Virus record (IMG/VR): IMGVR_UViG_3300025849_003344
DNA from: a virus
Taxonomy: Duplodnaviria; Caudoviricetes
Length of the DNA stretch: 64,000 nt
Direction: 5' to 3' (one strand)
Position 1 is the first letter of the stretch; the number at the start of each line of letters is the position of its first letter. The position numbers and the translations under genes were made by a program. The notes under the pieces are model-generated. The model was not told the DNA's origin and searched no databases. It worked only from the letters and a program-made list of their open reading frames with translations. Of the stretch, positions 6,135 through 41,268 are shown piece after piece.

Positions 6135-6156
6135 ATTCTTTCCTTCATAATATAAT

Positions 6157-6185
6157 ATAATAACATAGTTCAATAGGAAAGTACA
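6157..6185 (-). promoter_or_regulatory. Early sigma70-type promoter upstream of gp44
   Basis: TGTACT-N17-TATTAT with a TG extended -10; resembles the other early promoters in the window. Confidence 0.5.
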
Positions 6186-6188
6186 TAG

Positions 6189-6413: not shown

Positions 6414-6414
6414 T

Positions 6415-7089: not shown

Positions 7090-7115
7090 TATATACTCCA
7101 GTTGATTATGTATAT

Positions 7116-7145
7116 ATTATACCACATGTTAACGTCATTGTAAAC
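7116..7145 (-). promoter_or_regulatory. T4-type early promoter upstream of gp45
   Basis: GTTTACA-N17-TATAAT preceded by TGTGG, matching the T4 early consensus; GGAG SD before the gp45 ATG. Confidence 0.8.
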
Positions 7146-8169: not shown

Positions 8170-8170
8170 T

Positions 8171-11510: not shown

Positions 11511-11531
11511 AATATATCCTCAATATAATAT

Positions 11532-11561
11532 ATTCTATCACATTTGGGCACGGATGTACAC
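11532..11561 (-). promoter_or_regulatory. Early-type promoter for gp55
   Basis: GTGTACA-N17-TAGAAT, then an AGGA SD and the gp55 ATG. Confidence 0.7.
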
Positions 11562-24945: not shown

Positions 24946-25727
24946 AACGCACTGTCAATCTCTTGTATCAATGTTGTAAAGCCAAAGTCACTATCCGGTC
25001 CAGCATCAGACGGATTAGGAGTAATTGTAATTCTTTCTAATGGAACATCCGAATCATTTAAACCAGCACCGATATCTAAAATATCTGTAATTGCTGTACG
25101 AATAATACCTGCAGATGAAATCGGACCATGAAACATGACATGCATATCAAAGTCCATGGTATAAATGATTGTTCTCCTAGATTCCATTGCTCCTTCATAT
25201 TCATCGTTTAAAACAACGCCGGTCAGAATAATAGGAACATCTTCTTTTATTGTATCAAAATCAGTAAATGGCTGAATAGTTAAAGTATATTGTGGATTAA
25301 AATATGGTATTACCTGCTCAACAATCTGTAAAGCATCGTCCTGATTTTTAGCATATGCACTAAGCTGAAAGCTAATAATATACGGAATACCTTGAGTAAT
25401 CTTATTTCTAGATAAAACTGATCCCGCGACTGGTTGACTAGTCGTATTAATTTTCGGTAACTGCCTAGCAGGATCGTATGATATATTTGTAATTTCAAAC
25501 GACAATCTTGGAAGTTTAATTGCAACCTTTGTATCTTCACGAAGATCTGGAACTTCTCTAATTCTATCTAAGAATTTTGATCGAGGTCCGTACGATAGTG
25601 GCACTTTTTGAGTACTAATAACGCCACCGCCGGAATCTTTACGCAAAACGTATATGTCATTAAACATGGCACCAAATGTAGCCACTGCTTTTCTGATTCT
25701 TTGATGATAAAAATAATTGCCAAACAT
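24942..25727 (-). CDS. gp15: Tail sheath stabiliser gp15
   Basis: MFGNYFYHQRIRK..ATFGAMFNDI, KVPLSYGP, LPRLSFEI, QVIPYFNPQY. Confidence 0.95.
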   Translation of the reverse strand: MFGNYFYHQRIRKAVATFGAMFNDIYVLRKDSGGGVISTQKVPLSYGPRSKFLDRIREVPDLREDTKVAIKLPRLSFEITNISYDPARQLPKINTTSQPVAGSVLSRNKITQGIPYIISFQLSAYAKNQDDALQIVEQVIPYFNPQYTLTIQPFTDFDTIKEDVPIILTGVVLNDEYEGAMESRRTIIYTMDFDMHVMFHGPISSAGIIRTAITDILDIGAGLNDSDVPLERITITPNPSDAGPDSDFGFTTLIQEIDSAL

Positions 25728-26599
25728 TAATCAGGATCTCCGAATGGATTTGTTTCACTAAAGTCAATAAAGTCTAGACCATCAAAATCGTTATTTTGTT
25801 CATTGCCGTGTAACTGATTATCTTCTGTGAATGATGATAAAGTAGCACTAGCATTAGATTCTTGACCAGTAATTGTTCTTCCTGTAGATGGCAAGTGGAA
25901 TTTACCATCACTACCACCAAGATGAACAACTGAAAGTGAATTTGTATCTGATACCCACTGAGATACTTCGGCAGACAAAATAGTTCCGTCAGCAAGAGTT
26001 TGTTCTACACGTTCACCGACCTCAAAGGTTCCAGTTACTCCGGTAAGAATCATATCAAATTCATAAGCAGATGAGTTTTCAATGCCATCAATATCACTAA
26101 TACCAGTGTCAAGATCCTCATCGCTATATTCAAATAGTTGACAGCGCATCTTAAATGTTGGTAAGTTTGATAACTGATAGAATGGCTGCTCATGCTCAAC
26201 GTGCATAACTTCAAATAAAGACTTAGAAAGAGGAAGATAAACTAAATCACCTTCCCTTGGGCGTTCACCTTCTATTTCATTATCAACGCGACCAACCGTA
26301 TTATTCCAACGTCTGCGAGCGACGACAAAAGTAGCTTCGTCTCTGATCTCAACACCGAACTTAGTGAATAGATCTCCTTCTCCTTCAAATCCTTCTGTGT
26401 TTTCAATGTACATCTCGATTTTGTATGAGTTACTAAATTGCGAGGAAACGTCTTCGCCTAGTATTCTATTTTCGTTAACGATAGTTCTTGGCAGATAATA
26501 GACGTCTTGTCCATACATCTTTAAAGATTCTATAATTATATTCTCATATAAGTGCTGCTCAGAACGTACTGCTTCTGAAAAATAGATATTGCGTGCCAT
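25727..26599 (-). CDS. gp14: Neck protein gp14
   Basis: SEQHLYENIIIESLKMYGQDVYYLPR, RPREGDLVYLP, EQPFYQL. Confidence 0.95.
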   Translation of the reverse strand: MARNIYFSEAVRSEQHLYENIIIESLKMYGQDVYYLPRTIVNENRILGEDVSSQFSNSYKIEMYIENTEGFEGEGDLFTKFGVEIRDEATFVVARRRWNNTVGRVDNEIEGERPREGDLVYLPLSKSLFEVMHVEHEQPFYQLSNLPTFKMRCQLFEYSDEDLDTGISDIDGIENSSAYEFDMILTGVTGTFEVGERVEQTLADGTILSAEVSQWVSDTNSLSVVHLGGSDGKFHLPSTGRTITGQESNASATLSSFTEDNQLHGNEQNNDFDGLDFIDFSETNPFGDPD

Positions 26600-26600
26600 G

Positions 26601-27356
26601 TTAACCTACAAAAAAGTTAGGTGGAAGTTCATGTTCTAAACGAATTCGCTCTCTTAGTCTTTCAATATCTTGCATAGCATCATCAAATAATTGTCTTCCA
26701 TTTAACGATACTCCACCAGGTAATTGCATACCTTCGAACTTAATTAGGTTAGCTCCCCACTGCTGCTTAATCAAAGCTGTAGAATATTCTTTTAACCACA
26801 TATCATCATAAACTGACGTGTGAGTATCTGGATCTACGATTTGATAAACTTCAGCAATTATATAATCTCCGGCTTTAATATCTTTATCTGCAAAGTCGCC
26901 ATGAATATATAATCTGTTTTGTCTTCTAGAAAATTCTACTTGTGGATGCCCATTAAGCTTCATATCTAGAAGTGATAGATACTGTTGCATCTGTTCGTAG
27001 TATGCCAAATCGCCAGCCCAGTTTTGTAGATCAGCGATATCATTTAGCATCATTTGATATTTAACATCAAAGAAATTGCGAGAAGCCCCAAAAGCATTAT
27101 TAACGGGTAACAGCCGAGAAACAAATATGATGCTACTAGAAATAGGGATATATTCATTCGTAACATCGTCAGCTGTTACTAGATGCTTTAAATAAGTTTT
27201 TACAGTAGCATCTGAGTGATACTCTTGATACATTTGCAATGAGTCATCTATGCGTTCTTCAAGCTGATCAACATCCACGTTAATTTCAATAACTGGATCG
27301 CCAAGTCTTCGAAGACAATAATCGATGAGTCCTTGTCTTGATGTTGGAGCTGCCAT
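26601..27356 (-). CDS. gp13: Neck protein gp13
   Basis: YCLRRLGDPVIEINV, WLKEYSTALIKQQWGANLIKFEGMQLPGGV. Confidence 0.95.
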   Translation of the reverse strand: MAAPTSRQGLIDYCLRRLGDPVIEINVDVDQLEERIDDSLQMYQEYHSDATVKTYLKHLVTADDVTNEYIPISSSIIFVSRLLPVNNAFGASRNFFDVKYQMMLNDIADLQNWAGDLAYYEQMQQYLSLLDMKLNGHPQVEFSRRQNRLYIHGDFADKDIKAGDYIIAEVYQIVDPDTHTSVYDDMWLKEYSTALIKQQWGANLIKFEGMQLPGGVSLNGRQLFDDAMQDIERLRERIRLEHELPPNFFVG

Positions 27357-27383
27357 CTTAAGTCCTTTTAAAGAATTTGTATC

Positions 27384-27391
27384 TATTTATA
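27384..27391 (-). promoter_or_regulatory. Late promoter for gp13-gp17
   Basis: Exact TATAAATA upstream of gp13. Confidence 0.85.
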
Positions 27392-27400
27392 TAAAAAAAG

Positions 27401-27430
27401 GTGTACATACATATTGATGTGTGGTATAAT
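27401..27430 (+). promoter_or_regulatory. Early promoter for the heptose operon (predicted leaderless transcript)
   Basis: GTGTACA-N17-TATAAT preceded by GTGG; ATG at 27437 lies 7 nt after the -10 box with no SD. Confidence 0.75.
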
Positions 27431-27436
27431 AGAATA

Positions 27437-27835
27437 ATGAAAACAGTATTTACAAACGGCTGCTTCGATATATTACATCGAGGTCATCTAGAATATTTAA
27501 AGGAATCTGCCTTTTTCGGAGATAGGCTTATAGTAGGTATTAACTCTGATGATAGCGTTAAAAAACTAAAAGGTTCAACTAGGCCTGTCAATAGTCAAGA
27601 AGACCGTAAGTTTGCTTTAGAATGTTTAAGTTTTGTCGATAAGGTTTATATATTTGACGAGCAGACTCCATATGAATTAATTAAATATATAAAACCAGAT
27701 ATGATTACCAAAGGTGGTGATTATATATCGGACGATGTTATTGGTAATAATTTAGCTAAAGTAAAAATTATACCTTTAACAAAAGGTTATTCTACAACTA
27801 AGTTTATTGAAAGGATTTGCAATGACACAACTTAA
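27437..27835 (+). CDS. hldC: Heptose-1-phosphate adenylyltransferase (stand-alone HldE domain II)
   Basis: VFTNGCFDILHRGH, GINSDDSV..LKG..RP, KGGDY, GYSTT. Confidence 0.9.
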   Translation: MKTVFTNGCFDILHRGHLEYLKESAFFGDRLIVGINSDDSVKKLKGSTRPVNSQEDRKFALECLSFVDKVYIFDEQTPYELIKYIKPDMITKGGDYISDDVIGNNLAKVKIIPLTKGYSTTKFIERICNDTT

Positions 27836-28181
27836 AGGCTTTGTTGAAAAAGGTTGGGGCCATGAAAACATTTTTGCTACAAATGATAAGTATACGGGAA
27901 AGCTTTTAGTATTTAATGAAGGCGCTCGTTTCTCTATGCATTTCCATGCTATAAAGGATGAAACATTCTACGTTCTTGAAGGAGTATTTGATTTACTTAC
28001 AGTCGAAACTAATACTGCTAGTGTGAAAAAACATAGGTTAGACGTCGGTGATTCTATAAGAATAGAACCTTTAACTCCGCATCAAATTATTTGTGTAAAA
28101 AAAGGTACTATTATAGAAGTATCTACTCCAGATTCAGTTGAAGATAATTACCGAGTTGCTAAGGGCGATAGCCAAAAATGA
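27822..28181 (+). CDS. Cupin-fold protein, sugar-phosphate isomerase-like
   Basis: KGWGHE, SMHFHAIKDETFYV, PHQI, EVSTPD cupin metal motifs. Confidence 0.75.
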   Translation: MTQLKGFVEKGWGHENIFATNDKYTGKLLVFNEGARFSMHFHAIKDETFYVLEGVFDLLTVETNTASVKKHRLDVGDSIRIEPLTPHQIICVKKGTIIEVSTPDSVEDNYRVAKGDSQK

Positions 28182-29062
28182 TAATATGGGGCATGTCAAA
28201 AAACGGACATGACTGGGCAATTGCTGTCTTTAAAAGTGGTAATCATATACAAACCTTTTCTGGAAAAGGTAAATCACATCCATTGACTGCTGTGCATGAA
28301 GCTAAAGATTTAGGCTGTCCTTCACTTGTTATTTGGTATGAAAATCCATATCTCAAAGCTTTAAGACAATTTATATCAGGCCAACCAAAACCTTTTAAAA
28401 GAAATAATATTAAACGCTATTTACGCGATCTTAATATCAATTGCAGATGGGATTATGTGGGTCATCATGAATCGCACGCCGCGGCCTTTTATAAAAGCGG
28501 ATTTGATGATGCAACAGTTGTTGTCTTTGATAGTATAGGTGAATTTGACTGCACATCCATATGGAAAGCAGAACACGATAAACTTAAAAAAATTAAGTCG
28601 ACTAAATATCCTCATAGCATAGGACTATTTTATTCAGCTATGACGGATCGCATAGGATTGAAGCCGCAACAAGACGAAGCGGTGTTTGAACAAATATCTC
28701 AAGCGTATACACCATTTTCGCAATTAGTAACACAAATGGAAAATGACATAATAAAACAATGGGAGCCTATGCCTAAATTCAGAGTAAACTTTCACCATGG
28801 AGTAAGACAAATGTGGTGGAACAAAGGCAAAAAAGAAATAGCTAGTGCTGCACGTATAATCTTTGAGAGTTTAGTTACTAAAGTTCTACTTCACGCAAGA
28901 GAAGTTACTGACAGTCATAATATTGTATTAAGTGGCGGTGTTGCCTTTAATAAGTCTGTACCAAATATTGCAGGTAAGATATTTAATAATTTATACATAC
29001 CGCCAAATCCAGGTGATATTGGTTCTGCAGAGGGAGCAGTGTTGTCATATCTCAGGAAATAG
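28178..29062 (+). CDS. Carbamoyltransferase N-terminal (Kae1-like) domain only
   Basis: GHD.AIA, HHESHAAA, VFDSIGE, SIGLFYSAMT, LSGGVAFN, PGDIGSAEGA; the C-terminal YrdC-like domain is missing. Confidence 0.8.
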   Translation: MIIWGMSKNGHDWAIAVFKSGNHIQTFSGKGKSHPLTAVHEAKDLGCPSLVIWYENPYLKALRQFISGQPKPFKRNNIKRYLRDLNINCRWDYVGHHESHAAAFYKSGFDDATVVVFDSIGEFDCTSIWKAEHDKLKKIKSTKYPHSIGLFYSAMTDRIGLKPQQDEAVFEQISQAYTPFSQLVTQMENDIIKQWEPMPKFRVNFHHGVRQMWWNKGKKEIASAARIIFESLVTKVLLHAREVTDSHNIVLSGGVAFNKSVPNIAGKIFNNLYIPPNPGDIGSAEGAVLSYLRK

Positions 29063-29692
29063 ACATTCATCAATATAGCGACGAACCGTAACTGGATCTA
29101 CTCCTAGGCTTTCCATAACTCGTGGAGTATGCGGATTCTTTTTCTGATTGATAGCATACCAATTGTGTTGTTCTGTATAATCGTTTTCGGTTTCTTGTCC
29201 AATATTATGAAGAAAATAATCTAGATTATCATTAGCAAGATCTAAAATTGTTTGTAACTCTTCAGGATCTCGTACATTCCCAGCAGAAACCATACTACCA
29301 CTAAAAATGTTTCTAGCCCATTCTGGTAATTCTCTTGGTTTAGAAGGAATAAAACTGTGTACTTTCTCTGTGAAATGTTGTAATATATGATTATTAGGAT
29401 CTACCGGACTAAAATCGTGAAATGCTCCAGTAACTTTATTTGGACCGGCAATAATGTCAAAACCATAAATCGGTGAAGGATCATTAAGATGAGGATATAC
29501 GCAAAGATGCATCATCCAAAGTTTACGATCTTCAGTAGCATCAATGATGTCTAAGTCTGCTCTACGAAATATAGAAGGATTAACATAGCTAATTGCCGGC
29601 CATTGAAAGTCATGTTCATAGCTGCTAACTGAAAGAGATTCCAATTGATCCTGCATTTTAGCCGCAGCCTGTGTTAACTTTTCAAAGATCAA
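29045..29692 (-). CDS. pcyX: Ferredoxin-dependent bilin reductase, PcyX-like
   Basis: LWMMHLCVYP..PIYGFDIIAG..TGAFHDFSP, NQKKNPHTPRVM; His62/Asp79 have the same 17-residue spacing as the PcyA His88/Asp105 catalytic pair. Confidence 0.82.
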   Translation of the reverse strand: MIFEKLTQAAAKMQDQLESLSVSSYEHDFQWPAISYVNPSIFRRADLDIIDATEDRKLWMMHLCVYPHLNDPSPIYGFDIIAGPNKVTGAFHDFSPVDPNNHILQHFTEKVHSFIPSKPRELPEWARNIFSGSMVSAGNVRDPEELQTILDLANDNLDYFLHNIGQETENDYTEQHNWYAINQKKNPHTPRVMESLGVDPVTVRRYIDECLFPEI

Positions 29693-30275
29693 AACGTTTC
29701 TCTAAATCATAAAATAAATTGATTGCACACTCAAAACAAACATTTGCTTCATCTGCCATGTCTAGTGTAAGCATCGTACGTATTTCTTTAATAATTTCAT
29801 ACTTATTTTCAAATGTGTATATGTTAGTCCACCATTCTTCTGTAACAGGTCTATGTCCATCACTATCAGGAGGAAAGGCCTCTAAGTTGGGTTCAGGTAG
29901 CTTGCTTTTAATAATTTGCCCACCATGCATATCTCCAAAATGGCGGACATAAATATGAGCTAGTACATCTTCTTCGCTTAATTCTGTAGCGTATTCCATA
30001 TAGTCTAACGTAGACTTTTCTAATCCTGTATTATACTTAAAAAAATTTAAGTCCGCAGCAAACTTATTAACTTGAGCTATGCTCTTTAAAACAGGATATT
30101 TATTAAATAGATTTAATTCGTTGGCTCGTGCTTCTAAAGCTGAATAAGCCTGTAGCTGGTTGTATAAATATTGTCCGTACTGATGATTGGTCATATTTCC
30201 GGAAACAAGTAATTGAGCCCATTTAGATTGTTCAGCTTTTTTATGATTTAAATCAGTTAGCTTCTTAAGAGACAT
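29682..30275 (-). CDS. hemO: Heme oxygenase
   Basis: Proximal His in HKKAE, distal helix AHIYVRHFGDMHGGQII; GGAG SD before MSLKK; coupled to pcyX. Confidence 0.88.
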   Translation of the reverse strand: MSLKKLTDLNHKKAEQSKWAQLLVSGNMTNHQYGQYLYNQLQAYSALEARANELNLFNKYPVLKSIAQVNKFAADLNFFKYNTGLEKSTLDYMEYATELSEEDVLAHIYVRHFGDMHGGQIIKSKLPEPNLEAFPPDSDGHRPVTEEWWTNIYTFENKYEIIKEIRTMLTLDMADEANVCFECAINLFYDLEKRFDL

Positions 30276-30303
30276 AAATAACTCCATAATATGTGTAAAG
30301 TGG

Positions 30304-30311
30304 TATTTATA
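30304..30311 (-). promoter_or_regulatory. Late promoter upstream of hemO-pcyX
   Basis: Exact TATAAATA about 30 nt upstream of the hemO ATG, overlapping the ATG of the divergent kinase gene. Confidence 0.7.
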
Positions 30312-31231
30312 TGATAAATGTAATAGGCGATATTATTATTGACGAATATTGGTATGGCGATACAACTCGTATTTCGCCTGAGGCTCCCGTACCAATTGTA
30401 AATCTTAATAAGAAAAAAATATCTTTAGGCGGCGCTGGCAACGTTTATATGAATTTACTTTCTCTTAATAAGAAAGTAACTCTAAACGGATATTACGACG
30501 CAGCACACGAATATATATTTAATGAGATACAGGCTACCGGTAATCTAATGATTACTGAACAAATGCCGCATAAACTTAGAATTTTTTCTGGCTCCCAATA
30601 TATGTCAAGGGTTGATGCCGAAAAAACAATAGAAGAAAATGATGTACAAGATAAATTCTTTGTACCAAACATATATGATGTGGTCATATTATCAGACTAC
30701 AATAAAGGAACAGTTAAAGATCCACAAGCGATCATTAAAAAATCTAAGCGCACCATTGTTGACCCAAAAGTTTCATTAGACAAATATAAAGGTGCTTTCA
30801 TACTTAAACCAAATCTTAAGGAATTTGAAGACTATATTGGAAAGAAAACAAATCCAAAGTCTTTAATGTCAGAAGCTCAACGATTAAGACATGAATTGGA
30901 AATTGACCATTTTATTGTCACATTAGGACCAGAAGGAGTTCTATACGTTGGAGATTCTATCGAACACTATGATGCAACTGCTCAAGAAGTGTTTGATGTT
31001 ACTGGAGCGGGAGATACCTTTACTGCCGCACTCGCATATGGGATATATAATAACTTAGAAGTTCAAGACTCTGTAATTCTGGCAAATAAAATGGCTGGAT
31101 TAGCAGTGAGTAAATCTGGAACCTATGTAATAAATCCTAAAGATTTTAATGAAGCTATGGAAAATATCAATGAATATATTAATAACAGGTCATCGAGGTT
31201 TCATCGGGAAAAACTTATGGCTTTACTTTAG
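30311..31231 (+). CDS. hldA: Heptose-7-phosphate kinase (stand-alone HldE domain I, PfkB family)
   Basis: GDIIIDEYWYG...RISPEAPVP, GGAGNV, LSDYNKG, KPNLKEF, FDVTGAGDT. Confidence 0.92.
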   Translation: MINVIGDIIIDEYWYGDTTRISPEAPVPIVNLNKKKISLGGAGNVYMNLLSLNKKVTLNGYYDAAHEYIFNEIQATGNLMITEQMPHKLRIFSGSQYMSRVDAEKTIEENDVQDKFFVPNIYDVVILSDYNKGTVKDPQAIIKKSKRTIVDPKVSLDKYKGAFILKPNLKEFEDYIGKKTNPKSLMSEAQRLRHELEIDHFIVTLGPEGVLYVGDSIEHYDATAQEVFDVTGAGDTFTAALAYGIYNNLEVQDSVILANKMAGLAVSKSGTYVINPKDFNEAMENINEYINNRSSRFHREKLMALL

Positions 31232-31994
31232 ATCAAAAGGGCATAATGTTCAAGGTTGGGAATGGGGCGACACCCCTGAGTTTATTCTACCTAAAGATTT
31301 AGATTTGGTTATTCACTGCGGCGCTATTAGCAGCACCACGGAGAATAATGCCGATAAACTTATGGAGCAAAACTATGAGTTTACCACAGATCTTATTGTA
31401 CAGTGTCTTGAAAAAAATATAGACTTGCAATATGCATCTTCAGCATCTGTGTATGGGGATAGTACTACATTCGATGAAGATGATGAATGTATGCCTATGA
31501 ACGGTTATGCGTGGTCTAAGTATCTTATTGATAGGTTTGTGAAAGAAGCTATTAGCCTACCTTTACCTATTAATATCCAAGGCTTCCGATACTTTAATGT
31601 ATATGGAAAACATGAAATCAAAAAGGGTAATCAAGCTTCTCCTATTACAAAATTTACTATGCAAGCTATAACCGAAGAATCAATTATGCTATTTGAAGAT
31701 TCTGAAAAATACAAACGAGATTTTGTGTGTGTCGACGATGTATGTAAGGTTCATGAACAGATGATTGAGCAAGACGTGTCCGGCATCTTTAATGTTGGTA
31801 CGGGTAGAGCAGTTAGTTTCCAGACCGTAGGTGAGCTTATTGCTGAGAAACACAATGTATATATTAATCAAATCCCAATGCCAAATGTATTGCGTGGAAG
31901 TTATCAAGAATTCACTAAAGCTAATATCGATAAGCTAATGAAGCATGTTGATATTGAGTGGACTAGAGTGGAGGATTATATTAACAATGTTTAA
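31170..31994 (+). CDS. hldD: ADP-L-glycero-D-manno-heptose 6-epimerase
   Basis: ITGHRGFIG, HCGAISSTTE, YASSASVYG, YAWSK, FRYFNVYG, KRDFV, YQEFTKA. Confidence 0.88.
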   Translation: MNILITGHRGFIGKNLWLYFRSKGHNVQGWEWGDTPEFILPKDLDLVIHCGAISSTTENNADKLMEQNYEFTTDLIVQCLEKNIDLQYASSASVYGDSTTFDEDDECMPMNGYAWSKYLIDRFVKEAISLPLPINIQGFRYFNVYGKHEIKKGNQASPITKFTMQAITEESIMLFEDSEKYKRDFVCVDDVCKVHEQMIEQDVSGIFNVGTGRAVSFQTVGELIAEKHNVYINQIPMPNVLRGSYQEFTKANIDKLMKHVDIEWTRVEDYINNV

Positions 31995-32637
31995 TATGTG
32001 GGGTGAGTCAACGAGTCAGCAAACACAAGAACCACAGAATGGGTCGGCCGATCAACACCTGGATAGAAAACAGCTTAATGCCAAATACCCAAAACCTCTT
32101 ATTGCCATTGATCGCGATGGAGTTATTATTGAGTGTAATGGTAATGTAAAAACGCCTGAACAATTCATTCCAATTGAAGGATCCATCCAAGCCATTTCAT
32201 TGCTGAGATCGAAGGGATATAAAGTAGCAATTGTTTTTGATCAACCAGGCATTTCTAAAAATGAAATTACAATTGCAGAAGTTGAAAATATGAATGTTTT
32301 CATGTTAGACTTATTTGGAAAGGCTGGATGTCCTAGTATTGATGGTATTCTCTATAACACATCTGAATCAAAGGATGATCCATGGTCAAAGCCAAAGCCA
32401 CTGATGTTTAATAGATTACGCGACGAATTTAAGGTACCTACTAAAGGTGGATATTATGTGGGTGATAGACTCGTCGATGCTAAAATGGCTAATAAAGGAA
32501 AGCTTAAACCAGTCTTAGTTAGAACAGGCCAGTATTCTGAGGACTTGAAGAAATTTGATAGCTTTTCTAATAAGCAGCTAAAAAAGAAAACAAAGGTGTT
32601 TGATAATCTATTAGAGTTTGCAATATCTCTTCCATAA
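31987..32637 (+). CDS. gmhB: Heptose-1,7-bisphosphate phosphatase (HAD)
   Basis: IDRDGVI, DQPGI, KPKPLMF, YVGDRLVD, VLVRTG. Confidence 0.85.
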   Translation: MFNMWGESTSQQTQEPQNGSADQHLDRKQLNAKYPKPLIAIDRDGVIIECNGNVKTPEQFIPIEGSIQAISLLRSKGYKVAIVFDQPGISKNEITIAEVENMNVFMLDLFGKAGCPSIDGILYNTSESKDDPWSKPKPLMFNRLRDEFKVPTKGGYYVGDRLVDAKMANKGKLKPVLVRTGQYSEDLKKFDSFSNKQLKKKTKVFDNLLEFAISLP

Positions 32638-32663
32638 AAAAAGGCGGCCACGGGCCGCCTTTT
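32636..32663. terminator. Bidirectional intrinsic terminator between convergent gmhB and the carbamoyltransferase
   Basis: AAAAAAAGGCGGCC-ACG-GGCCGCCTTTT with T runs on both strands. Confidence 0.9.
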
Positions 32664-32682
32664 GAGTTTGAGGTGCTTAGTA

Positions 32683-34494
32683 TTATTCGTTAGGAACTTT
32701 GATTAGCTTACCGTGTTCTGGCAAATACATATATTCAATATCTGATTTAACAAGAGTCATAATAGCATCATCGATTGTCTCAACGAGTGGATCTCCGCCC
32801 AGGTTAAAACTGGTATTGAACACAATGGGAACACCAGTCTTTTCTTTAAACGCTTTAATTAGTTTATAGTATAGAGGATTCTGTTCTTCAGTTACAGTCT
32901 GAATTCGACATGTTCCATCAACGTGGATAATAGAAGGAATCTTTTCTTCAATACCAGGTTGACAGTTGACAGCATACATCATATGTGGTGTCTCATCCAT
33001 ACCACGAAGATCAAACCATTCGTGAACATCTTCAGCTAGAATGGATCCAGCAAACGGTCTAAAATATTCACGGTCCTTAACTAGATTAACATAATCTTTA
33101 CCATCTTCAAAAGTTGGATCGAAAAGAATAGACCTATTACCTAATGCACGTGGCCCATTTTCTGAACGACCTTGATAGAATGTGACAATGTTCTTATCTG
33201 TCATTAGATCTACAACGTCTGTTTCAGTAGCATCTGTCACTTCAGCTTCTTCATATTTTGAAACAGCATTCATAACATCATCGGTAGTATATTGATGATC
33301 TGGGCCAAGATATAGAGTGTCTAGCTTACGGTTAGTTTCATCATCTGTACGAGCGTGCCAGTACATAAGTGCAGCGCCCATAGCGGTACCAGCATCATTT
33401 GAAATTGGTTCAACATAAATGTTAATACCTTCATCCTTTAGAGCTTCAAGGTAGTGGTAGTTGGCTACGCAATTAAGACCATATCCACCAGAAATCACTA
33501 CGTTGTTTTGACCAGACATTTCAACAGCTTTGCGAATAAGCTTGACCATCTCATCTTGAGTCTGAGTTTGAATAGCATACGCCATATCACGACGACAGGT
33601 TAGCTTAGTAGCATCTCCTTGCACATTTTCCCAATCTTCTTGTGATGCTTGAAAGAAGTCATAAAAACCTTCATTTACAAAAGCTCCATTAGGAACATTG
33701 GGAATAAACATATTACGATCAAACACACCTGGAACCGGCGAGCGTGGATCAAACAGATTTTTCAAGTTTTCATTTTCTGATCCATATGGAAAAAGACCCA
33801 TTGTCTTTCCAGCTTCAATTGGTTGCCATCCACAATATTGTGTTACAGCCTCATAGGCTTTAGTCAAGCCCCCTCGGTCAGTAATCATAGCATCAAATTG
33901 GCCTTCTTCGCCAAACATCTCACTATCAAGTTTGGTCATCGTGCCAACAAGCGGATCTCTACAACCTAAATGCTTATATAAAGTTTTAAAAGCTGCAGGA
34001 TATTCACAGTTAATAATTGATTCATATTCCCAAATAGCAATCCCGCCACCTTGGGGATTGGAAATAGGAATCACCGAACCTGCGCCATCAGCAATTAGAG
34101 CTACAGCTTCATCAAACGGTGAGCGATAGAATGCTATAGCAGCATGTAGCTTGTGATGCATAATAGACATATCAATTACTTGCGGGTGATTTGGGCCTCT
34201 AGCGTGACGATCGATTAGACCTAGTTTGCGCGACAGGCCAGTATATACATCATCTCCACTAAAGTCAACTTTACCCGCAGTTTCATGCAACGATTGGGTG
34301 TGAGCAATTACCAGATAATCAAGCTTATCTGTATAATCGAGAATCTTAACAATACCTGCATATGGCCCACCATCATATTTTGCACGTGAAAGGCGTTCTT
34401 CTTCAATAGAGAATACAATCTCGCCATTTTTCAGAAGGCAGACTCCAGCATTGTGACCTCGAGCAATACCTGCAATCCATACATCATTTTCCAT
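32683..34494 (-). CDS. Full-length O-carbamoyltransferase (NodU/CmcH/TobZ family)
   Basis: GHNAGVCLL, EEERLSRAK, HHKLHAA, AGKTMGL, SGGYGLNCVAN, GPRALGNRSIL, REYFRPFA, NTSFNLGG. Confidence 0.93.
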   Translation of the reverse strand: MENDVWIAGIARGHNAGVCLLKNGEIVFSIEEERLSRAKYDGGPYAGIVKILDYTDKLDYLVIAHTQSLHETAGKVDFSGDDVYTGLSRKLGLIDRHARGPNHPQVIDMSIMHHKLHAAIAFYRSPFDEAVALIADGAGSVIPISNPQGGGIAIWEYESIINCEYPAAFKTLYKHLGCRDPLVGTMTKLDSEMFGEEGQFDAMITDRGGLTKAYEAVTQYCGWQPIEAGKTMGLFPYGSENENLKNLFDPRSPVPGVFDRNMFIPNVPNGAFVNEGFYDFFQASQEDWENVQGDATKLTCRRDMAYAIQTQTQDEMVKLIRKAVEMSGQNNVVISGGYGLNCVANYHYLEALKDEGINIYVEPISNDAGTAMGAALMYWHARTDDETNRKLDTLYLGPDHQYTTDDVMNAVSKYEEAEVTDATETDVVDLMTDKNIVTFYQGRSENGPRALGNRSILFDPTFEDGKDYVNLVKDREYFRPFAGSILAEDVHEWFDLRGMDETPHMMYAVNCQPGIEEKIPSIIHVDGTCRIQTVTEEQNPLYYKLIKAFKEKTGVPIVFNTSFNLGGDPLVETIDDAIMTLVKSDIEYMYLPEHGKLIKVPNE

Positions 34495-35446
34495 TCTTAG
34501 CACCTTTGCTCACAACAATATCCAATTCTTTAGCAATTTCATCAACCGCTTTATCAGAAAGCATCATAACTCCTTCATGTGATCTTCCAATTTCTTCTTC
34601 AAAAGAAATACGGATCGGATCATATCGACGTTTACCTGCTCCCAAGTCTAACACTTGAAATATATCATTGTCATCATAGCTTACATTTTCTGGGTATGTT
34701 GCGCCAACGACTGTAACTGCTGGCGTTTCTAAAGAGTACGCGAAATGCTGACCCACGCTATCACAACCAAGAAAACCATCAGCGGCTTTAATTGCACTTG
34801 CCCAAATCCGCAAGGGCGCGCCTTCTGGTTGAGCAACAGCCTCGGTAATACCAAACTGTGAAAAGTCTGTAGGGAACTCACTCATAAGAACAATAGCATA
34901 TTTCTTTTGTAACTTCTTAATAAGTTTTACAGTATCACTCACTGAGAAACTCCGCCCGCCACTATCTATTAGTTGTTGACCTTTGTTTCCCATAGGCTGA
35001 GTACTACGACCATATGGTTGAAATACAATTACCTTTTGCTTTTGAGTTTTTTCTTTTACTTCATCAATGATATCTTTTCCACTGATGAGTTCGTCAGCCC
35101 AAAGATGAAGGTTTGGTGCTGGAAGATCTCGAACACCCTTATTATTAATTTGAATATCAAACGCCTGCGCTAGGCTAGCTTTTTGATTATAATACTCCCA
35201 CACTCGATATGGTTCGGTAGACACACAAGTTCGGTTTTTAATCTTATCTTCAAAAAGTCCTTTATGCCAGTTATCAAAGGCGCGCCTATGTAAGGTTGGA
35301 TGACCCTTGTACATGTCCATGCCACCTTCACAGACAATGATAAAATCATCATCTGGATTGTCTACTTCATATTTTTCTAAAGCTGGAATTGAGCAGACGT
35401 GACGTCCTGCTCCACCGTTCACGAAGAACGCGGTTGATCTTGTCAT
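34484..35446 (-). CDS. GT9-like (ADP-heptose) glycosyltransferase
   Basis: N-terminal GGAGR motif, VIVFQPYG, FLGCDSVGQHFAY..TPAVTV GT-B signature; next to the heptose genes. Confidence 0.7.
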   Translation of the reverse strand: MTRSTAFFVNGGAGRHVCSIPALEKYEVDNPDDDFIIVCEGGMDMYKGHPTLHRRAFDNWHKGLFEDKIKNRTCVSTEPYRVWEYYNQKASLAQAFDIQINNKGVRDLPAPNLHLWADELISGKDIIDEVKEKTQKQKVIVFQPYGRSTQPMGNKGQQLIDSGGRSFSVSDTVKLIKKLQKKYAIVLMSEFPTDFSQFGITEAVAQPEGAPLRIWASAIKAADGFLGCDSVGQHFAYSLETPAVTVVGATYPENVSYDDNDIFQVLDLGAGKRRYDPIRISFEEEIGRSHEGVMMLSDKAVDEIAKELDIVVSKGAKNGK

Positions 35447-35515
35447 TTTGCACCTCACAAGAATAAATTATAAATGAATGATTAATTAATCATCATGTCT
35501 TATATATACATGATT

Positions 35516-35545
35516 TAATGGAGCCTTATTTCTAAAGCTCCATTA
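35516..35545. terminator. Hairpin between the fibre module and the GT9 operon
   Basis: TAATGGAGC / GCTCCATTA 9-bp stem; T run only on the plus strand. Confidence 0.4.
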
Positions 35546-35551
35546 TTTTTA

Positions 35552-36238
35552 TTATGCGCTGTCGTTAGCTGCCGCAAGAGAGGCTACAAGAGAATCGGAA
35601 TCTCCAGGAGTTAGCCTAAACCCTACCTCGTGCGGAAGTAATCCAGCGGTTTGCCAAGCATCGACTTTATTTTCAGCTTCCGTTTTACACGAATTATATG
35701 CAGCGACTATGTCGGAATCAGCACCTGCTGAATCGTTTTCTGCTAACCACGTATTAATAGAGTTAACCACAGCATCTGCCTGATTAGCTATACCGCTCCA
35801 CGTCATCCAAGTCGTATGCCATGGATAAGGTTTAACCCATGACAAAGTTTCTTCATTCCACCGCATAGCATCTGCTTGATATGCTTTATGAGGTGGAAGG
35901 GGCCATGGATACGAATACGTGACACCATCTGGACCAGTTTTTACTTTTTGAGGAAGATCACTAATATCTGAATCTCTCATTCCCCAAAGAATAGAGGCTT
36001 CCAGCGGATTACCCAATGCATTCAATAGAAGGCATTGGTCATGGTCATTAGCATCTTCTGCATTCCATGCATCCAGCGTTGTTTCATCTACCGATTGAAT
36101 CATGCCATTATCTGATAGGTGAACGTGAAGATATTTTGGCCCGTGATATGTAAAGCTAGCTGAGGAATCATTTTCTGCCTCTTGTAGCGTATAATCGTCG
36201 GGTACTTTATACGTAAAAGTTTTTGTTACTCTAGACAT
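35552..36238 (-). CDS. Putative tail-fibre assembly or associated protein
   Basis: Last gene of the fibre operon; Trp/Pro-rich (YPWPLPP, PYPW); seven DS motifs. Confidence 0.5.
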   Translation of the reverse strand: MSRVTKTFTYKVPDDYTLQEAENDSSASFTYHGPKYLHVHLSDNGMIQSVDETTLDAWNAEDANDHDQCLLLNALGNPLEASILWGMRDSDISDLPQKVKTGPDGVTYSYPWPLPPHKAYQADAMRWNEETLSWVKPYPWHTTWMTWSGIANQADAVVNSINTWLAENDSAGADSDIVAAYNSCKTEAENKVDAWQTAGLLPHEVGFRLTPGDSDSLVASLAAANDSA

Positions 36239-36247
36239 TTTATTTCC

Positions 36248-37288
36248 TTATGAATAGCTTATTCTTATCATTCCGGGACCACCACGGGAACCACAGCAAC
36301 AGGTACCACCGCATGTAGCAGGTGTAAACCCACCTTGACCTACAGCTTGCTGGTTTGGCGCGCCCGTCGCAATAATACCTGATCCAACCATCATACATTG
36401 AAAGTAGTTGTGCACGCCGCCTATCGTATTACACCATTTAATTGCAACAAGACCACCATTTACTGAAGGTTTTTCAATATGACCCATTACAGGCAACTTA
36501 AAAAGGCCACCGGGGTAGGGAACAAATTCTTTATCGCCGCAACGCGACGCGTCAATGCCGGACGATGTCCCACAACATGATGTTTGATGGCATGCGTATA
36601 TACCCTTACTTCCCCCATCAGCACCATAGTATTTTGCTGGAGCGAATACATCGTTATCACTATCTGTCGTGGATCTGCCTAACATACAATCCATTCTAAC
36701 TGTAACGCAAGCAAAGCAGGTATTTGCGGTATGATACCCTTGACCATAAGTTGACGATGCCCAACCACAACAGACAGCAGCTCCAGGGTTTCCGCCCTCG
36801 GCGCAAAGATTGTCGAGGCCTGTTCCTGTAACATATGTTTTCATCCCCCGCGTACCGCGGCTAACAAATCCTAAGCCTTGGTCAGTTAACACTGTTGTGC
36901 CATCAGCGCAGAATGTGCGTGTGCAACAGTGTCTTTCTACACCATTAAAACACAAGGTGTATACGTCACCTGGAGTAACATCTACGGCTTTATAGGCATA
37001 AGCTCCAGATCCTCCACCCAAACCCTGTGAGCAGAGATTGGATCCAGCACCCATGCCGCCGCCACCCCACAGGTGAAATGTTGCTCTGCTAGTTCCAACT
37101 GGAACTTCCCATTTATACTTAAAATAAAGTTCGGGGCAAAGTGCATCTGACCGTATCGCGGTACAATACTGTCCCTCGACGTTGCTTCTAACTTTAAAAA
37201 AGAAGTCATTCACATCATCATCAGCGGCGTTGATATTAGGTTGATCCGCAGAATATTGACCTAAGAATGATTGTAGTTGTTTAGCCAT
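36248..37288 (-). CDS. Cys/Gly-rich adhesin-like virion protein, type C copy 2
   Basis: MAKQLQSF, FHLWGGGG, GAYAYK, NLCAEGG, TCGGTCCCG. Confidence 0.6.
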   Translation of the reverse strand: MAKQLQSFLGQYSADQPNINAADDDVNDFFFKVRSNVEGQYCTAIRSDALCPELYFKYKWEVPVGTSRATFHLWGGGGMGAGSNLCSQGLGGGSGAYAYKAVDVTPGDVYTLCFNGVERHCCTRTFCADGTTVLTDQGLGFVSRGTRGMKTYVTGTGLDNLCAEGGNPGAAVCCGWASSTYGQGYHTANTCFACVTVRMDCMLGRSTTDSDNDVFAPAKYYGADGGSKGIYACHQTSCCGTSSGIDASRCGDKEFVPYPGGLFKLPVMGHIEKPSVNGGLVAIKWCNTIGGVHNYFQCMMVGSGIIATGAPNQQAVGQGGFTPATCGGTCCCGSRGGPGMIRISYS

Positions 37289-38289
37289 TATGCTTCATCC
37301 TCATGAAATCTAATTATTTGCAGCGGGGAGGATCCAGGGGCGCCGCAGCAGCACGCGCCACCACACGTTTGGGCTGATGGAAGGCTCATCCCCTGCATCA
37401 TATAACCTGAATACTCCGACCGACCACCATAATCGCAACAGTATGTGTTCCGATGAGAGAACCCACCCATTCCTTGCTCGCAGAAATCAGTCATTCTTAT
37501 CATTACTGAACCACTTCTATAACCAGATTGCTTCCAGTTACCAAATGAAGACCACATGGGTTTTCCACAAATGCCGCTGTCACAGCGGTTAATACACGAT
37601 CCAGATTCGAAGCCATAGTTAGAAGACGCCTTACAATACACACAATCGTACCCATAATCTTCAGCGGGCGTTGGGTTTTCCAAACAGGATGAGTGGCAAG
37701 TCGCCATAGTACATCCACGACAAGATGGATGAAGCGCAGCACCGCTTGAGCCAAGTGCGCCATAATTACAGCATGGATTATAACCATAAGTACAGACACC
37801 TGCAGCGCCACATCCGCTTTCAGTCTTTATACAGTTAATAATTGTTCCACCAGCACCACCAGATCTATGCTGTACATTAGTATGACCGCTACATTTTCCA
37901 TTGCACTCCGGGGTGCAACAACCGCAACCACTGGAAACGCAAATGAATAGATGATCACTATCTCCAACCCATTGAGGAGAATATTTAGCAACGCCGCCAG
38001 ACCTACCAGATGAGCTTTGTTGGCAACAGCATGTGCCGCCTGATGGCCCACCGCCGCCAAACATATATATGTCGGTGCCACCATCTTCGAGTTTACCCTT
38101 TTTCATACTCCCGCCGCAAAACGTATGGCGCTTCCTGTCCATATGATAGTGTTGGTGGCCATAGTCTGTACCGCCGGCGCAGCCATTCATATCTGGTCCG
38201 TACGGACCAGTATATACTATAGTCTTATATTTTAAGTCAGACGTTGCCGTTATAGACCCAGGTTGAAATGTCGATAAATTTTTTGCCAT
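37288..38289 (-). CDS. Cys/Gly-rich adhesin-like virion protein, type B copy 2
   Basis: MAKNLSTFQPG, GGTCCCQ; 32 Cys in 333 aa by hand count. Confidence 0.6.
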   Translation of the reverse strand: MAKNLSTFQPGSITATSDLKYKTIVYTGPYGPDMNGCAGGTDYGHQHYHMDRKRHTFCGGSMKKGKLEDGGTDIYMFGGGGPSGGTCCCQQSSSGRSGGVAKYSPQWVGDSDHLFICVSSGCGCCTPECNGKCSGHTNVQHRSGGAGGTIINCIKTESGCGAAGVCTYGYNPCCNYGALGSSGAALHPSCRGCTMATCHSSCLENPTPAEDYGYDCVYCKASSNYGFESGSCINRCDSGICGKPMWSSFGNWKQSGYRSGSVMIRMTDFCEQGMGGFSHRNTYCCDYGGRSEYSGYMMQGMSLPSAQTCGGACCCGAPGSSPLQIIRFHEDEA

Positions 38290-39206
38290 TAGGTTCCATC
38301 CTCGAAAGTATTACAGCAGCTGTATGTTATCCTAATTCTTCCAGGACTCCAATATCCGCCACAAGCCGAGTTTCCACCGCAATGTGCTACACCTGGTTTA
38401 CCCCAACCTGCCATAAACACTTTGCCGCTTTCGGAGTTGCAAGAACCATAGAAGTCTGAAAGAATACCATCAGTAGGGCCTGATCCCCCACAACATATAT
38501 TAGTACTACTCAGCTGAAGATGTCCTATTAAATGGCCACCTCTTTTATTCCAAAGCCCACCTGGATAAGGTATACCTTGTCTATAATAGTTATAATTCGT
38601 TTGATCAAGGGCTGAGTCGATCAACTGAATAAATCCAGGATGCCCTCTAGTGCCTCCGTCAGCGCCAAAATATCTTGCTCCCTCATTTTCACTATCTTGG
38701 AACATATATTGTTTTGATCCATCTGCTGGCGCAAGATTGCAACATACTACAGAAGATGAGCATCCGTGTTCAGCACAGAAATTTGTCAACCCTGTGCCAG
38801 TAATCCAAGTGTGGCGATTGGTATTGTTACATGGCGTTGATTTTGTCGTATCAGATCCTCCATTTGGAGGATAACAGCAATATTGCCAAGCAGTATGAGT
38901 TCTATAACATGTGTTTGGAGTAACAGTCAAATATTTATATGCATACGCCCCAGCCGCGGCAGGTCCAGAGTACATACAATTGCATCCGCCACCCGGCGCG
39001 CCACCTGTGCCCCATATCTCAAACTTTACACAGCAGATATCTGCAGGCACGCAAAAGAATTGCTCATGTGTAAAATTCACACATGACCGATCCTCGTTAA
39101 AACGTGTTCTTGGAACATAATCCCATGTACAATAAGGAACTAGACCAGCAACGTCGACCGACGATGAGCCTATAGATTTTACAAAAGTGTTTAGATTCTT
39201 AGCCAT
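38289..39206 (-). CDS. Cys/Gly-rich adhesin-like virion protein, type A copy 2
   Basis: MAKNLNTFVKS, FEIWGTGG, GAYAYK, TNFCAE, KRGGHL, GRIRITYS. Confidence 0.6.
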   Translation of the reverse strand: MAKNLNTFVKSIGSSSVDVAGLVPYCTWDYVPRTRFNEDRSCVNFTHEQFFCVPADICCVKFEIWGTGGAPGGGCNCMYSGPAAAGAYAYKYLTVTPNTCYRTHTAWQYCCYPPNGGSDTTKSTPCNNTNRHTWITGTGLTNFCAEHGCSSSVVCCNLAPADGSKQYMFQDSENEGARYFGADGGTRGHPGFIQLIDSALDQTNYNYYRQGIPYPGGLWNKRGGHLIGHLQLSSTNICCGGSGPTDGILSDFYGSCNSESGKVFMAGWGKPGVAHCGGNSACGGYWSPGRIRITYSCCNTFEDGT

Positions 39207-39214
39207 ACTAATTC

Positions 39215-40294
39215 CTATTTATACGTGATAGCCACTAGGCCCATACCACCATAATCGCCACAGCAACATGTTCCGCCACATGTCCATGAACTTGCCCCAC
39301 CAACACCTATCATAGCACCACCATTATCAAATTGATTGTTAGCTACTGTTGAGCCCATCATCATCTGCCGTTCAGCGGTACCGTGCGGCCCAAACATTCC
39401 GAAGGAGGTGTTAACGCAATTCCGATAGTGATTGCCTACATGATATCCATACTTACTATTTAGTGTAGTTCCCATCCACCATTTCCCGCCAGGCATTGCA
39501 ATCCAGTGAATAAAGCTGGATTCATTACAACAGTTAGCTTCGAAGCAGCCGCAACAACCGTGCTGCCATTCAGAATGTAGTCCTCTTGACCCGCCATCTG
39601 CTCCATAGTAACAAGCAGTTCTAAATCTAGAACTATCGCTATCGTTAGGATCTCTGTCTAACATATCACAAGCCCTAACCCTAGCATCCTGTTCGAATGT
39701 TACGCCGCGGCCACCATTGGGGCCGTCAAAAAGCCGGGCACAGCCACCTCTGATATGCGCTTGAGCCGTAAAGCCAGGATTCCCGCCTTCAGCACAAAAG
39801 TTTGTAAGACCTGGGCCAGTTACATAAGCAGTGATACCTTTACATCCTGCCATAATATAACAAGTGCAACTGGCGGCCGTGGCGTCCCAGCTTTCCGCAG
39901 CCGTTCCCGGAGGGCAACAGAAATGCGCGGCTGAGGTGGAGCAAGATAATGTTTGCACATCACCTAAGCATGAAACATATCTGTCACCTGCTGAAAACCC
40001 GCTTGTTATTTTCTTATATGCATACGCTCCAGCACCAGCGTGAAAACCTTGCATACAACAATGTGAGCCGGCTCCAACGCCTCCGCTTCCCCATGCATGG
40101 ACAGTTATTTCTGAGGTCCCCGGAGGAACTATCCAAACGTCTTTAGTCCCACCCGCATTTGCGGAAGATCCATGACGCGTGATCCAGTCCACACCGGTGC
40201 CGATTTTCTGATTAGTAAACCAATGAACTTTCACCTCGGTCTCGGCAACTTGGGAAGGTGCCAAATTAATTAGAGATTGTAATGTTTTAGCCAT
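39215..40294 (-). CDS. Cys/Gly-rich adhesin-like virion protein, type C copy 1
   Basis: MAKTLQSL, HAWGSGG, GAYAYK, TNFCAEGG, TCGGTCCCG. Confidence 0.6.
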   Translation of the reverse strand: MAKTLQSLINLAPSQVAETEVKVHWFTNQKIGTGVDWITRHGSSANAGGTKDVWIVPPGTSEITVHAWGSGGVGAGSHCCMQGFHAGAGAYAYKKITSGFSAGDRYVSCLGDVQTLSCSTSAAHFCCPPGTAAESWDATAASCTCYIMAGCKGITAYVTGPGLTNFCAEGGNPGFTAQAHIRGGCARLFDGPNGGRGVTFEQDARVRACDMLDRDPNDSDSSRFRTACYYGADGGSRGLHSEWQHGCCGCFEANCCNESSFIHWIAMPGGKWWMGTTLNSKYGYHVGNHYRNCVNTSFGMFGPHGTAERQMMMGSTVANNQFDNGGAMIGVGGASSWTCGGTCCCGDYGGMGLVAITYK

Positions 40295-40315
40295 ATTATC
40301 CTACTTTTCCTAGCA

Positions 40316-41260
40316 CTATTTATACCAAATAGTAATGAATGCAGGCTGCCCCGGCCCACCGCAATAACAGTTGCCACCCGTGGCAACCGCCGGAAATCCG
40401 CCAGTTCCGGCCGTACAAATTCCGCCCATACCAAAGGATGGGTTTGTTCCCCCAAACATTCTCATGAAACCACATGTTGTGGTCCCGCCATGTTGGTTGT
40501 CTGTTTTGGTCATCGGCGCGCCGGCATAGTGTGATAAATTAGTTTTAAAATGATTGAGATCTGCAAAATGACTAGTTCCGCACAACGTATTTGGCGGGCT
40601 CGCACAACATGCTGTAACGACAAAACCTGGGCGTGATTTAAATACGTTTGCGTCTGAATCAAAAATAGCTCCTTTAGTAGTGGCTATAGAGCATGCCTGA
40701 CACCCATATACGCTTATATTGGATATCTGATTGTCTGGCTCCCAACATCTACCCGCGGTCGTGCTGCTGATATCACCCCAACAGTGGCAGAAACAATTGC
40801 TTTGGTTTTGCATATTACAGCATGATCTCGTGCATGCCGCGCCATCAGCCTTAAAAACAAGCTCACTATTAGTATCGTTATATATTTCAATCTGGCAGCC
40901 TTGTTGACCATTATCAGTTGCAACACAACAGCCACCGGCGCGGATACAGAAGCACCATTTTTCATCTGCTACAACATCTACATCCAATATTCCTGAAGAA
41001 CCTGAATTGCCAGGCACACTGGTCTGGCAACAGTTAGTACCACCTGTACTAGATCCGTTAGCCACATAAAAGAATTTAGCTTGTGTGATTCCGGTAGGAA
41101 CTGTCCACTTATATCCATGCCCACCATAATTAGGGGTACGCGGGCCTACACCGTTGTGACATCCATTCCCAGCTCTAAACGTCTGAACCTGCCAGCTGCC
41201 AAGACCTAGAGTTACCTCGCCAGCCATGCCCGGCGCAAATTGTGTTATATTTTTCGCCAT
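40316..41260 (-). CDS. Cys/Gly-rich adhesin-like virion protein, type B copy 1
   Basis: MAKNITQFAPG, GGTNCCQ, GGNCYCG. Confidence 0.6.
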   Translation of the reverse strand: MAKNITQFAPGMAGEVTLGLGSWQVQTFRAGNGCHNGVGPRTPNYGGHGYKWTVPTGITQAKFFYVANGSSTGGTNCCQTSVPGNSGSSGILDVDVVADEKWCFCIRAGGCCVATDNGQQGCQIEIYNDTNSELVFKADGAACTRSCCNMQNQSNCFCHCWGDISSTTAGRCWEPDNQISNISVYGCQACSIATTKGAIFDSDANVFKSRPGFVVTACCASPPNTLCGTSHFADLNHFKTNLSHYAGAPMTKTDNQHGGTTTCGFMRMFGGTNPSFGMGGICTAGTGGFPAVATGGNCYCGGPGQPAFITIWYK

Positions 41261-41268
41261 AGTTCCTA

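Follow-up and report, generated by a model that had tools for sequence, protein, structure and literature searches.

Introduction

A viral cassette of heme oxygenase (HemO) and the bilin reductase PcyX has been described from ocean metagenomes, with PcyX_EBK42635 (PDB 5OWG) as its representative (Ledermann et al. 2016, 2018, cited in PMC11480375, PMC13197396). Three-gene cassettes of the type hemO-pcyA/X-valaS are known from aquatic phages (PMC11480375), and cyanophages such as P-SSM2 carry the heme-to-bilin genes ho1-pebS and pcyA, the purpose of which has been called a mystery (PMC3037559). Iron supply and light-related roles have both been discussed for these cassettes, and their purpose is unsettled (PMC11480375). 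What heme-to-bilin genes do in phages of non-photosynthetic bacteria is likewise an open question (PMC11480375; for cyanophages, PMC3037559).

Here, we analyze such a cassette in a stretch of 64,000 nucleotides from a virus of the class Caudoviricetes (IMG/VR record IMGVR_UViG_3300025849_003344), hereafter called the window. Its two genes, hemO and pcyX, are encoded on the minus strand, with a plus-strand block of ADP-heptose genes on either side. The first enzyme would convert heme to biliverdin, Fe2+ and CO, and the second would reduce biliverdin, probably to phycoerythrobilin (PEB). We consider it likely that this is the known hemO-pcyX unit in the orientation of the phage backbone, with its own gp55-type late promoter amid heptose genes of the opposite strand. 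The cassette itself is already known; its regulatory setting is newly described.

Strand and Setting of the Cassette

The window corresponds to that part of a T4-like marine phage which holds the structural and replication genes. By its large terminase, the nearest record is the uncultured Phage C48C1 (73% identity, with other phages at 47% or less), and by its bilin reductase the nearest isolate is Pelagibacter phage Mosig (46%). All open reading frames (ORFs) of at least 90 aa lie on the minus strand, with the exception of six sugar genes. An earlier note on this DNA had placed hemO and pcyX antisense between two plus-strand blocks of ADP-heptose genes, and both the gene identities and the strands bear this out. 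The same note called the cassette inverted. It does lie on the strand opposite to the sugar genes, but the label is misleading because all other genes of the 64 kb are on the minus strand; it is the sugar genes that are inverted, the cassette being oriented like the backbone.

The Predicted Late Promoter Upstream of hemO

In phage T4, late transcription starts from the sequence TATAAATA, which is read by gp55 together with gp33 and the gp45 clamp. The window encodes a gp55-like late sigma factor (10932-11510, minus strand; phrog_234, 2e-51) and a homolog of the gp45 sliding clamp (phrog_223, 2e-75). An exact TATAAATA is located at 30304-30311 on the minus strand, 29 nt before the hemO start codon (ATG 30275) and outside the coding sequence of hemO. 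The motif begins at the base that pairs with the A in the ATG of hldA, the sugar gene that faces hemO. The earlier note had likened this motif to those of the structural operons, and its distribution agrees: of the 14 occurrences in the window, 13 fall on the minus (coding) strand, where 8 of them precede a gene start of that strand by 75 nt or less (binomial P 2.5e-7). The raw count, 14 against 8.9 expected, is not significant.

The motif is retained in related phages. Among the contigs of IMG/VR, we identified 80 with a PcyX relative (L numbers below). In all 16 loci where hemO faces hldA, a late-type motif precedes hemO; 14 of them have the exact sequence at a distance of 28-40 nt, while in L016 the motif lies at -65 and in L036 it takes the form CATAAATA. 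The flanking bases differ between these loci, while the 8-mer is kept. Where the gene upstream of hemO is co-oriented, no late motif was found within 80 nt of hemO in any of 56 loci; among these are L004, L010 and L020, members of the same clade with fibre genes ahead of hemO.

One could object that the motif before hemO is no promoter at all, and is either an AU-rich element that assists the translation of hldA or a fortuitous match. In most relatives it stands within -1 to +2 nt of the hldA ATG, and the unremarkable raw count would also fit such a view. We nevertheless regard it as very improbable: the exact 8-mer, which is the consensus of the encoded gp55, is preserved while its flanks diverge, its position and leader length are the same as for other late genes, and in L016, where it has shifted into the coding sequence of hldA, it still precedes hemO.

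The need for a promoter at this place becomes apparent from the upstream boundary. A two-way intrinsic terminator (32636-32663), a GC hairpin GGCGGCC/GGCCGCC with a T run on each strand and a folding energy of -19.5 kcal/mol, marks the border between a late-strand carbamoyltransferase gene and the end of the second sugar block; similar hairpins are present in L017, L018, L019 and L021. Together with the inverted genes it would cut the cassette off from late transcription arriving from upstream, and the cassette therefore needs a promoter of its own. Given the exact motif, the encoded gp55 and gp45, and the retention of the motif where upstream late read-through is blocked, the predicted late promoter of hemO-pcyX is well supported. 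To this extent the late expression proposed in the earlier note agrees with the sequence; the virion pigment that it attached to this timing is not supported, as described below.

No terminator was found after pcyX, so the transcript probably continues into the neck gene gp13 (26601-27356, minus strand), which adjoins the first sugar block and has a late promoter of its own (27384-27391, minus strand, TATAAATA). Sigma70-type matches on the minus strand upstream of hemO were dismissed as chance, as the generic scan returned 24 matches against 31 in shuffled sequences.

The Two Bilin Enzymes

The gene hemO (29682-30275, minus strand) encodes a heme oxygenase of 197 aa that matches PF01126 with 58.5 bits (cut-off 23). 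Its ATG at 30275 is preceded by GGAG at 30282-30285; an alternative start, ATG 30287, was rejected, being out of frame in relatives such as L005. The translation contains LNHKKAE and GDMHGGQ, which, from general knowledge of HO-1, we take to hold the proximal His and the distal-helix motif GDxxGGQ, respectively. The gene pcyX (29045-29692, minus strand) starts with TTG, where relatives use ATG at the same position, and overlaps the hemO stop by 11 nt. It encodes a PcyX-type bilin reductase of 215 aa (PF05996, 57.1 bits, cut-off 31), whose closest solved relative is PcyX 5OWG (E 2.7e-52), the best PcyA being at 1.7e-9.

Residues 48, 62 and 79 of PcyX align to Asp, His and Asp at 5OWG chain positions 63, 77 and 94, and would correspond to Asp55, His69 and Asp86 if that chain has 8 extra N-terminal residues. 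Among 76 viral-contig homologs, the first of these positions is Asp in 73 (Glu in 3), and His and Asp at the other two are found in all 76. A PcyA-like enzyme of a freshwater phage, CB_2, is reported to lack Asp55 and to make phycocyanobilin (PCB) (PMC11480375); because Asp is kept here, the residue favours PEB as the predicted product. The position two residues before the Asp55 equivalent (residue 46, ~29555-29557) is Asp in this clade; 49 of the 76 homologs, the solved PcyX among them, have His there. The three established catalytic residues are unaltered.

Across the clade PcyX is much more conserved (70-86% identity) than HemO (34-61%), which suggests that the reduction step is under selection. 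Two HemO lineages, mutually about 35% identical, stand beside nearly the same PcyX (29682-30275 in the window vs. those of L002, L005, L013 and others); hemO has therefore apparently been exchanged independently of pcyX.

The Cassette in Related Contigs

In about 23 of the 80 contigs, those with PcyX 52-86% identical, the cassette and gp13-gp14-gp15 keep their place and strand, while the sugar genes differ in number, side and even strand (L036, L078). The gmhB gene may be on either side of the cassette, all four heptose enzymes are encoded upstream of it in L036 and they are co-oriented with it in L078; L004, L010, L011, L020 and L022 have the downstream sugar block only. The simplest explanation of this pattern would be a cassette that resides in the backbone, beside the neck genes, and ADP-heptose genes that came to flank it in the opposite orientation.

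Phages of other groups have the cassette beside a tail-fibre chaperone, PhoH or an N4-like RNA polymerase, and hemO-pcyX is a mobile module. We had also considered that the cassette always accompanies the neck genes, and dropped this in view of the contigs with PhoH or N4-like RNA polymerase as neighbours. The N4-like RNA polymerase contigs L041, L043-L051 and L054 share a conserved GC hairpin with a T run upstream of hemO, about 20 nt before its ribosome-binding site, and the late motif is absent there. Another observation concerns L018 (8631-9836, minus strand) and likewise L019, where a gene for an AlaS-like aminotransferase (401 aa; PF00155, E 1.6e-62) ends an opposite-strand block with an early promoter and converges on pcyX, with overlapping 3' ends.

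The Sugar Genes and Their Promoters

The first sugar block (27437-29062, plus strand) consists of genes for an HldC-like adenylyltransferase (27437-27835), a WbuC-like cupin (27807-28181) and the N-terminal half of a carbamoyltransferase (28178-29062, 294 aa), and its 3' end overlaps that of pcyX by 18 nt. The second block (30311-32637, plus strand) encodes an HldA-like kinase (30311-31231; TIGR02198, 5e-72), an HldD-like epimerase (31149-31994; TIGR02197, 4e-72) and a GmhB-like phosphatase (31945-32637; NF006506, 4e-28). The four heptose assignments (kinase, adenylyltransferase, phosphatase and epimerase) are the best NCBIfam matches, that of the adenylyltransferase having an E-value of 8e-48, and all are below the equivalog cut-offs. 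The cluster contains no gene for GmhA (sedoheptulose-7-phosphate isomerase, SIS domain) and has the WbuC-like cupin in its place; the host may supply GmhA.

A sigma70-type promoter precedes hldC (27402-27430, plus strand), back to back with the late promoter of gp13. It consists of TGTACA, a 17-nt spacer and TATAAT with a TGTGG extension, and ends 6 nt before ATG 27437. The consensus GT(G/T)TACA, 12 nt, TGTG(G/A)TA(T/G)AAT is shared by three intergenic sites, before hldC (27402-27439, plus strand), gp55 (~11510-11560, minus strand) and gp45 (~7090-7135, minus strand), and because gp55 and gp45 must precede late transcription, we take it to be the early promoter type of this phage. It is kept before hldC in most members of the clade, with the -10 box ending 5-6 nt before the ATG, which suggests a leaderless hldC mRNA.

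For hldA the situation is different. As the earlier note stated, no consensus early promoter precedes this gene, and we found no sigma70-type promoter there in the window or in any relative. The note missed, however, the late-type motifs on the plus strand upstream of hldA. The sole plus-strand TATAAATA of the window (30163-30170), 141 nt upstream of hldA, is a candidate late promoter for hldA-hldD-gmhB and lies inside the hemO codons for Tyr-Leu-Tyr. A second candidate, CATAAATA at 30273-30280 (plus strand), ends 30 nt before the hldA ATG and is the complement of the hemO spacer and start codon, and a third plus-strand motif, also CATAAATA, is located at 29948-29955. In the whole window, plus-strand NATAAATA occurs 4 times against 14.5 expected (P 0.001, analytic Markov expectation), and three of the four sites (29948, 30163 and 30273) are no more than 365 nt upstream of hldA (P 7e-7). 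In ten relatives, half of the opposite-strand late-type sites (11 of 22) are found in the 400 nt that precede hldA. Of 11 distinct divergent-type hemO genes, 8 retain the codons TAT-TTA-TA; these span two lineages about 35% identical. None of 5 co-oriented hemO genes that also encode YLY has them. On these observations, the second sugar block may be transcribed from dedicated late promoters facing that of hemO.

A further arrangement is possible, namely early antisense read-through from the hldC promoter across the cassette, because no terminator lies between the first sugar block and hldA. If extended to a regulatory switch, the early transcript would run through the cassette to hldA-hldD-gmhB and silence hemO-pcyX until the late phase. 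Such a switch would account for a strong conserved early promoter before hldC with none before hldA, for the lack of any plus-strand terminator found in 29062-30311 and for the division of the kinase and the adenylyltransferase of one pathway between different blocks; a metatranscriptome contig spanning 30062-30363 gives a weak hint in the same direction. However, with late-type motifs of its own before hldA, read-through is not needed to explain the expression of that gene, the contigs show neither strand nor a single transcript, and the silencing is pure conjecture. We therefore regard the switch as possible and somewhat doubtful.

Taken together, transcription of the region may proceed as follows; its timing and extents are predictions from sequence. 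The first sugar block would be transcribed early, from the host sigma70-type promoter, and the cassette late, from its own gp55-type promoter, probably with the neck genes. The second block would be reached by read-through across the antisense cassette, from late promoters in the 5' part of hemO, or by both routes.

Weighing the Evidence for a Late Cassette

Several considerations weigh against the proposed late promoter and what we derive from it. The 16 facing loci are not independent and comprise about 10 distinct upstream sequences. An 8-nt late promoter may simply be the cheapest way to restore expression, in which case its retention would reflect selection for expression and not necessarily for late timing. 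A role of the motif in hldA translation is also possible, given its distance from the hldA start codon in most relatives. The plus-strand motifs embedded in hemO can also be explained by their coding context, namely the Tyr-Leu-Tyr codons and the spacer ahead of the hemO ATG, and they are missing in L016 and partly in L018 and L019. The metatranscriptome contigs are short and unstranded, carry no timing information and may include DNA; the timing and start sites of the cassette are predictions. As for the product, the His-to-Asp change at residue 46 leaves some doubt, and PEB or PCB could be formed.

The metatranscriptome and virome contigs over 25500-35500 are 200-700 nt long and of low depth, and cover structural, sugar and bilin genes alike; stretches without cover are not evidence.

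We still consider a late hemO-pcyX unit likely. A conserved late promoter at a place where upstream late transcription is blocked provides a testable prediction of when the pathway runs.

Cys-Rich Genes and the Possible Function of the Bilin

Upstream of the sugar genes, the minus strand carries a full-length NodU-type carbamoyltransferase gene (32683-34503, in addition to the 294-aa N-half on the plus strand), a gene with a weak heptosyltransferase (GT9) match, and then six Cys-rich genes, about 6 kb upstream of the cassette (region 32683-42177). The earlier note had suggested that the bilin becomes a virion pigment, bound by thioether bonds to these nearby Cys-rich fibre proteins for photoprotection or light sensing. 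The late promoter would place the synthesis in the assembly phase, the Cys-rich genes are close by, and the sub-clade with GT9-like and carbamoyltransferase genes has both features. The co-occurrence of pcyX and Cys-rich genes, which the note proposed to check and which we examined, leads to another conclusion. In the sampled contigs, Cys-rich ORFs are found near pcyX only where GT9-like and NodU-type carbamoyltransferase genes are present as well (L002, L005, L007, L008, L013, L014, L016, L017, L018, L021, L036 and L069); they follow those genes and not pcyX. Mosig, L004, L010, L020 and most of the more distantly related contigs have none near pcyX, and L010 and Mosig have Gly-rich, Cys-poor proteins in their place.

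Relatives of the Cys-rich family are, in turn, found in cyanophage isolates outside the 14 phage records that match this PcyX (none in Mosig), and the cassette is present in contigs with N4-like RNA polymerase. No CpeT-type lyase was found in five full related records, and among these only Mosig has a ferredoxin. A protein search of the same five records for Cys-rich proteins was blank and is uninformative, as L014 has diverged Cys-rich ORFs by direct ORF reading. A virion pigment on the Cys-rich fibres is thus extremely improbable, which narrows the range of hypotheses.

Other functions remain to be weighed. It is quite possible that the pathway serves late heme breakdown, for iron recovery or heme removal, with PcyX clearing the biliverdin. 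In its specific form, iron recovery would mean that Fe2+ is released late from heme for phage metalloproteins or metal-binding fibres, and that PcyX only removes biliverdin to keep heme oxygenase turning over. Iron supply has been discussed for such cassettes (PMC11480375), the Mosig cassette follows a ferrochelatase-like gene and four genes for 2OG-Fe(II) oxygenases, and the exchange of two HemO lineages beside the same PcyX gives the impression that any heme oxygenase will do. On the other hand, PcyX is the more conserved of the two enzymes and its catalytic residues are kept in 73 to 76 of the 76 homologs, which speaks for selection on the reduction itself, and we hold this specific form to be rather unlikely. 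Use of the bilin as a chromophore or signal for a cellular protein seems to us still less probable, without being far-fetched.

Finally, the late timing itself may have been selected. Heme would be made early with the help of an AlaS-like gene, as in L018 and L019, whose layout would fit heme made early and broken down late. Its conversion to bilin and free iron would follow late, from a pair of late promoters facing each other, which would serve the heptose kinase block as well. We consider this improbable; if true, it would couple the breakdown of heme and the supply of sugar nucleotides to virion assembly, e.g. to the metal loading or tailoring of fibre heads.

Other Genes of the Window

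The structural genes of the window include gp13 and gp14 (neck), sheath stabiliser, terminase, sheath, tube, portal and major head protein; a UvsW-like helicase, gp55, a gp46/47-like nuclease, gp45 and the clamp loader are also encoded. Accessory genes, all on the minus strand, encode a UDP-glucose dehydrogenase-like protein (599-1708), a glutaredoxin-phosphomannomutase fusion (4156-5196), a radical SAM protein with an N-terminal SPASM domain (7135-8169) and a PA14/GLEYA-domain protein beside the head genes (14578-15192). The statement of the earlier note that no ferredoxin, lyase or photosynthesis gene is in the window holds within the ORFs scanned: Pfam revealed none among 40 larger ORFs (all of the non-structural ones; about two-thirds of the ORFs of at least 90 aa), the naming of eight further large ORFs by PHROGs gave replication or structural genes only, and the small ORFs of two gaps contained none.

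Comparison With Known Systems

The cassette of the window resembles the ocean-metagenome HemO-PcyX in the adjacency of the heme oxygenase and PcyA-like reductase genes and in the equivalents of Asp55, His69 and Asp86. It differs in the substantially different sequences of both proteins and in the Asp that replaces His before Asp55 in this clade. The term "late promoter" does not occur in PMC11480375, and neighbours on the opposite strand are likewise not mentioned in the cassette literature examined. As in the hemO-pcyA/X-valaS cassettes, an AlaS-like gene adjoins pcyX in L018 and L019; unlike there, it is on the opposite strand, and the window has no alaS at this place. The cyanophage genes belong to another reductase family (PebS or PcyA), their hosts are cyanobacteria, and they are often accompanied by cpeT and petF, neither of which was seen here.

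Mosig (EXVC030M, MT647606), with hemO and an annotated "pcyA," is the nearest isolate (PcyX 46% and HemO 34% identical). Its hemO-pcyX lies directly upstream of gp13 on the same strand, as in the backbone of the window, and TATAAATA is found 28 nt before gp13, as at gp13 of the window. Unlike the window, Mosig lacks inverted heptose genes as well as a promoter directly ahead of hemO, and it has a ferredoxin of its own. Its cassette ends a co-oriented run (4024-9579) of a hypothetical gene, a 2OG-Fe(II) oxygenase, a ferrochelatase-like gene, endonuclease V and three more 2OG-Fe(II) oxygenases, behind a TATAAATA located 4.3 kb upstream of the cassette and 40 nt before the first gene of the run.

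Overall, the regulatory signals follow the T4 scheme, with the exact TATAAATA consensus upstream of structural genes and homologs of gp55 and gp45 encoded. A published prediction of late promoters in pelagimyophages failed (PMC7029224), whereas in this phage the canonical late motif is plain, and promoters of both kinds, canonical T4 late and sigma70-type early, are recognizable in this pelagimyophage-like group.

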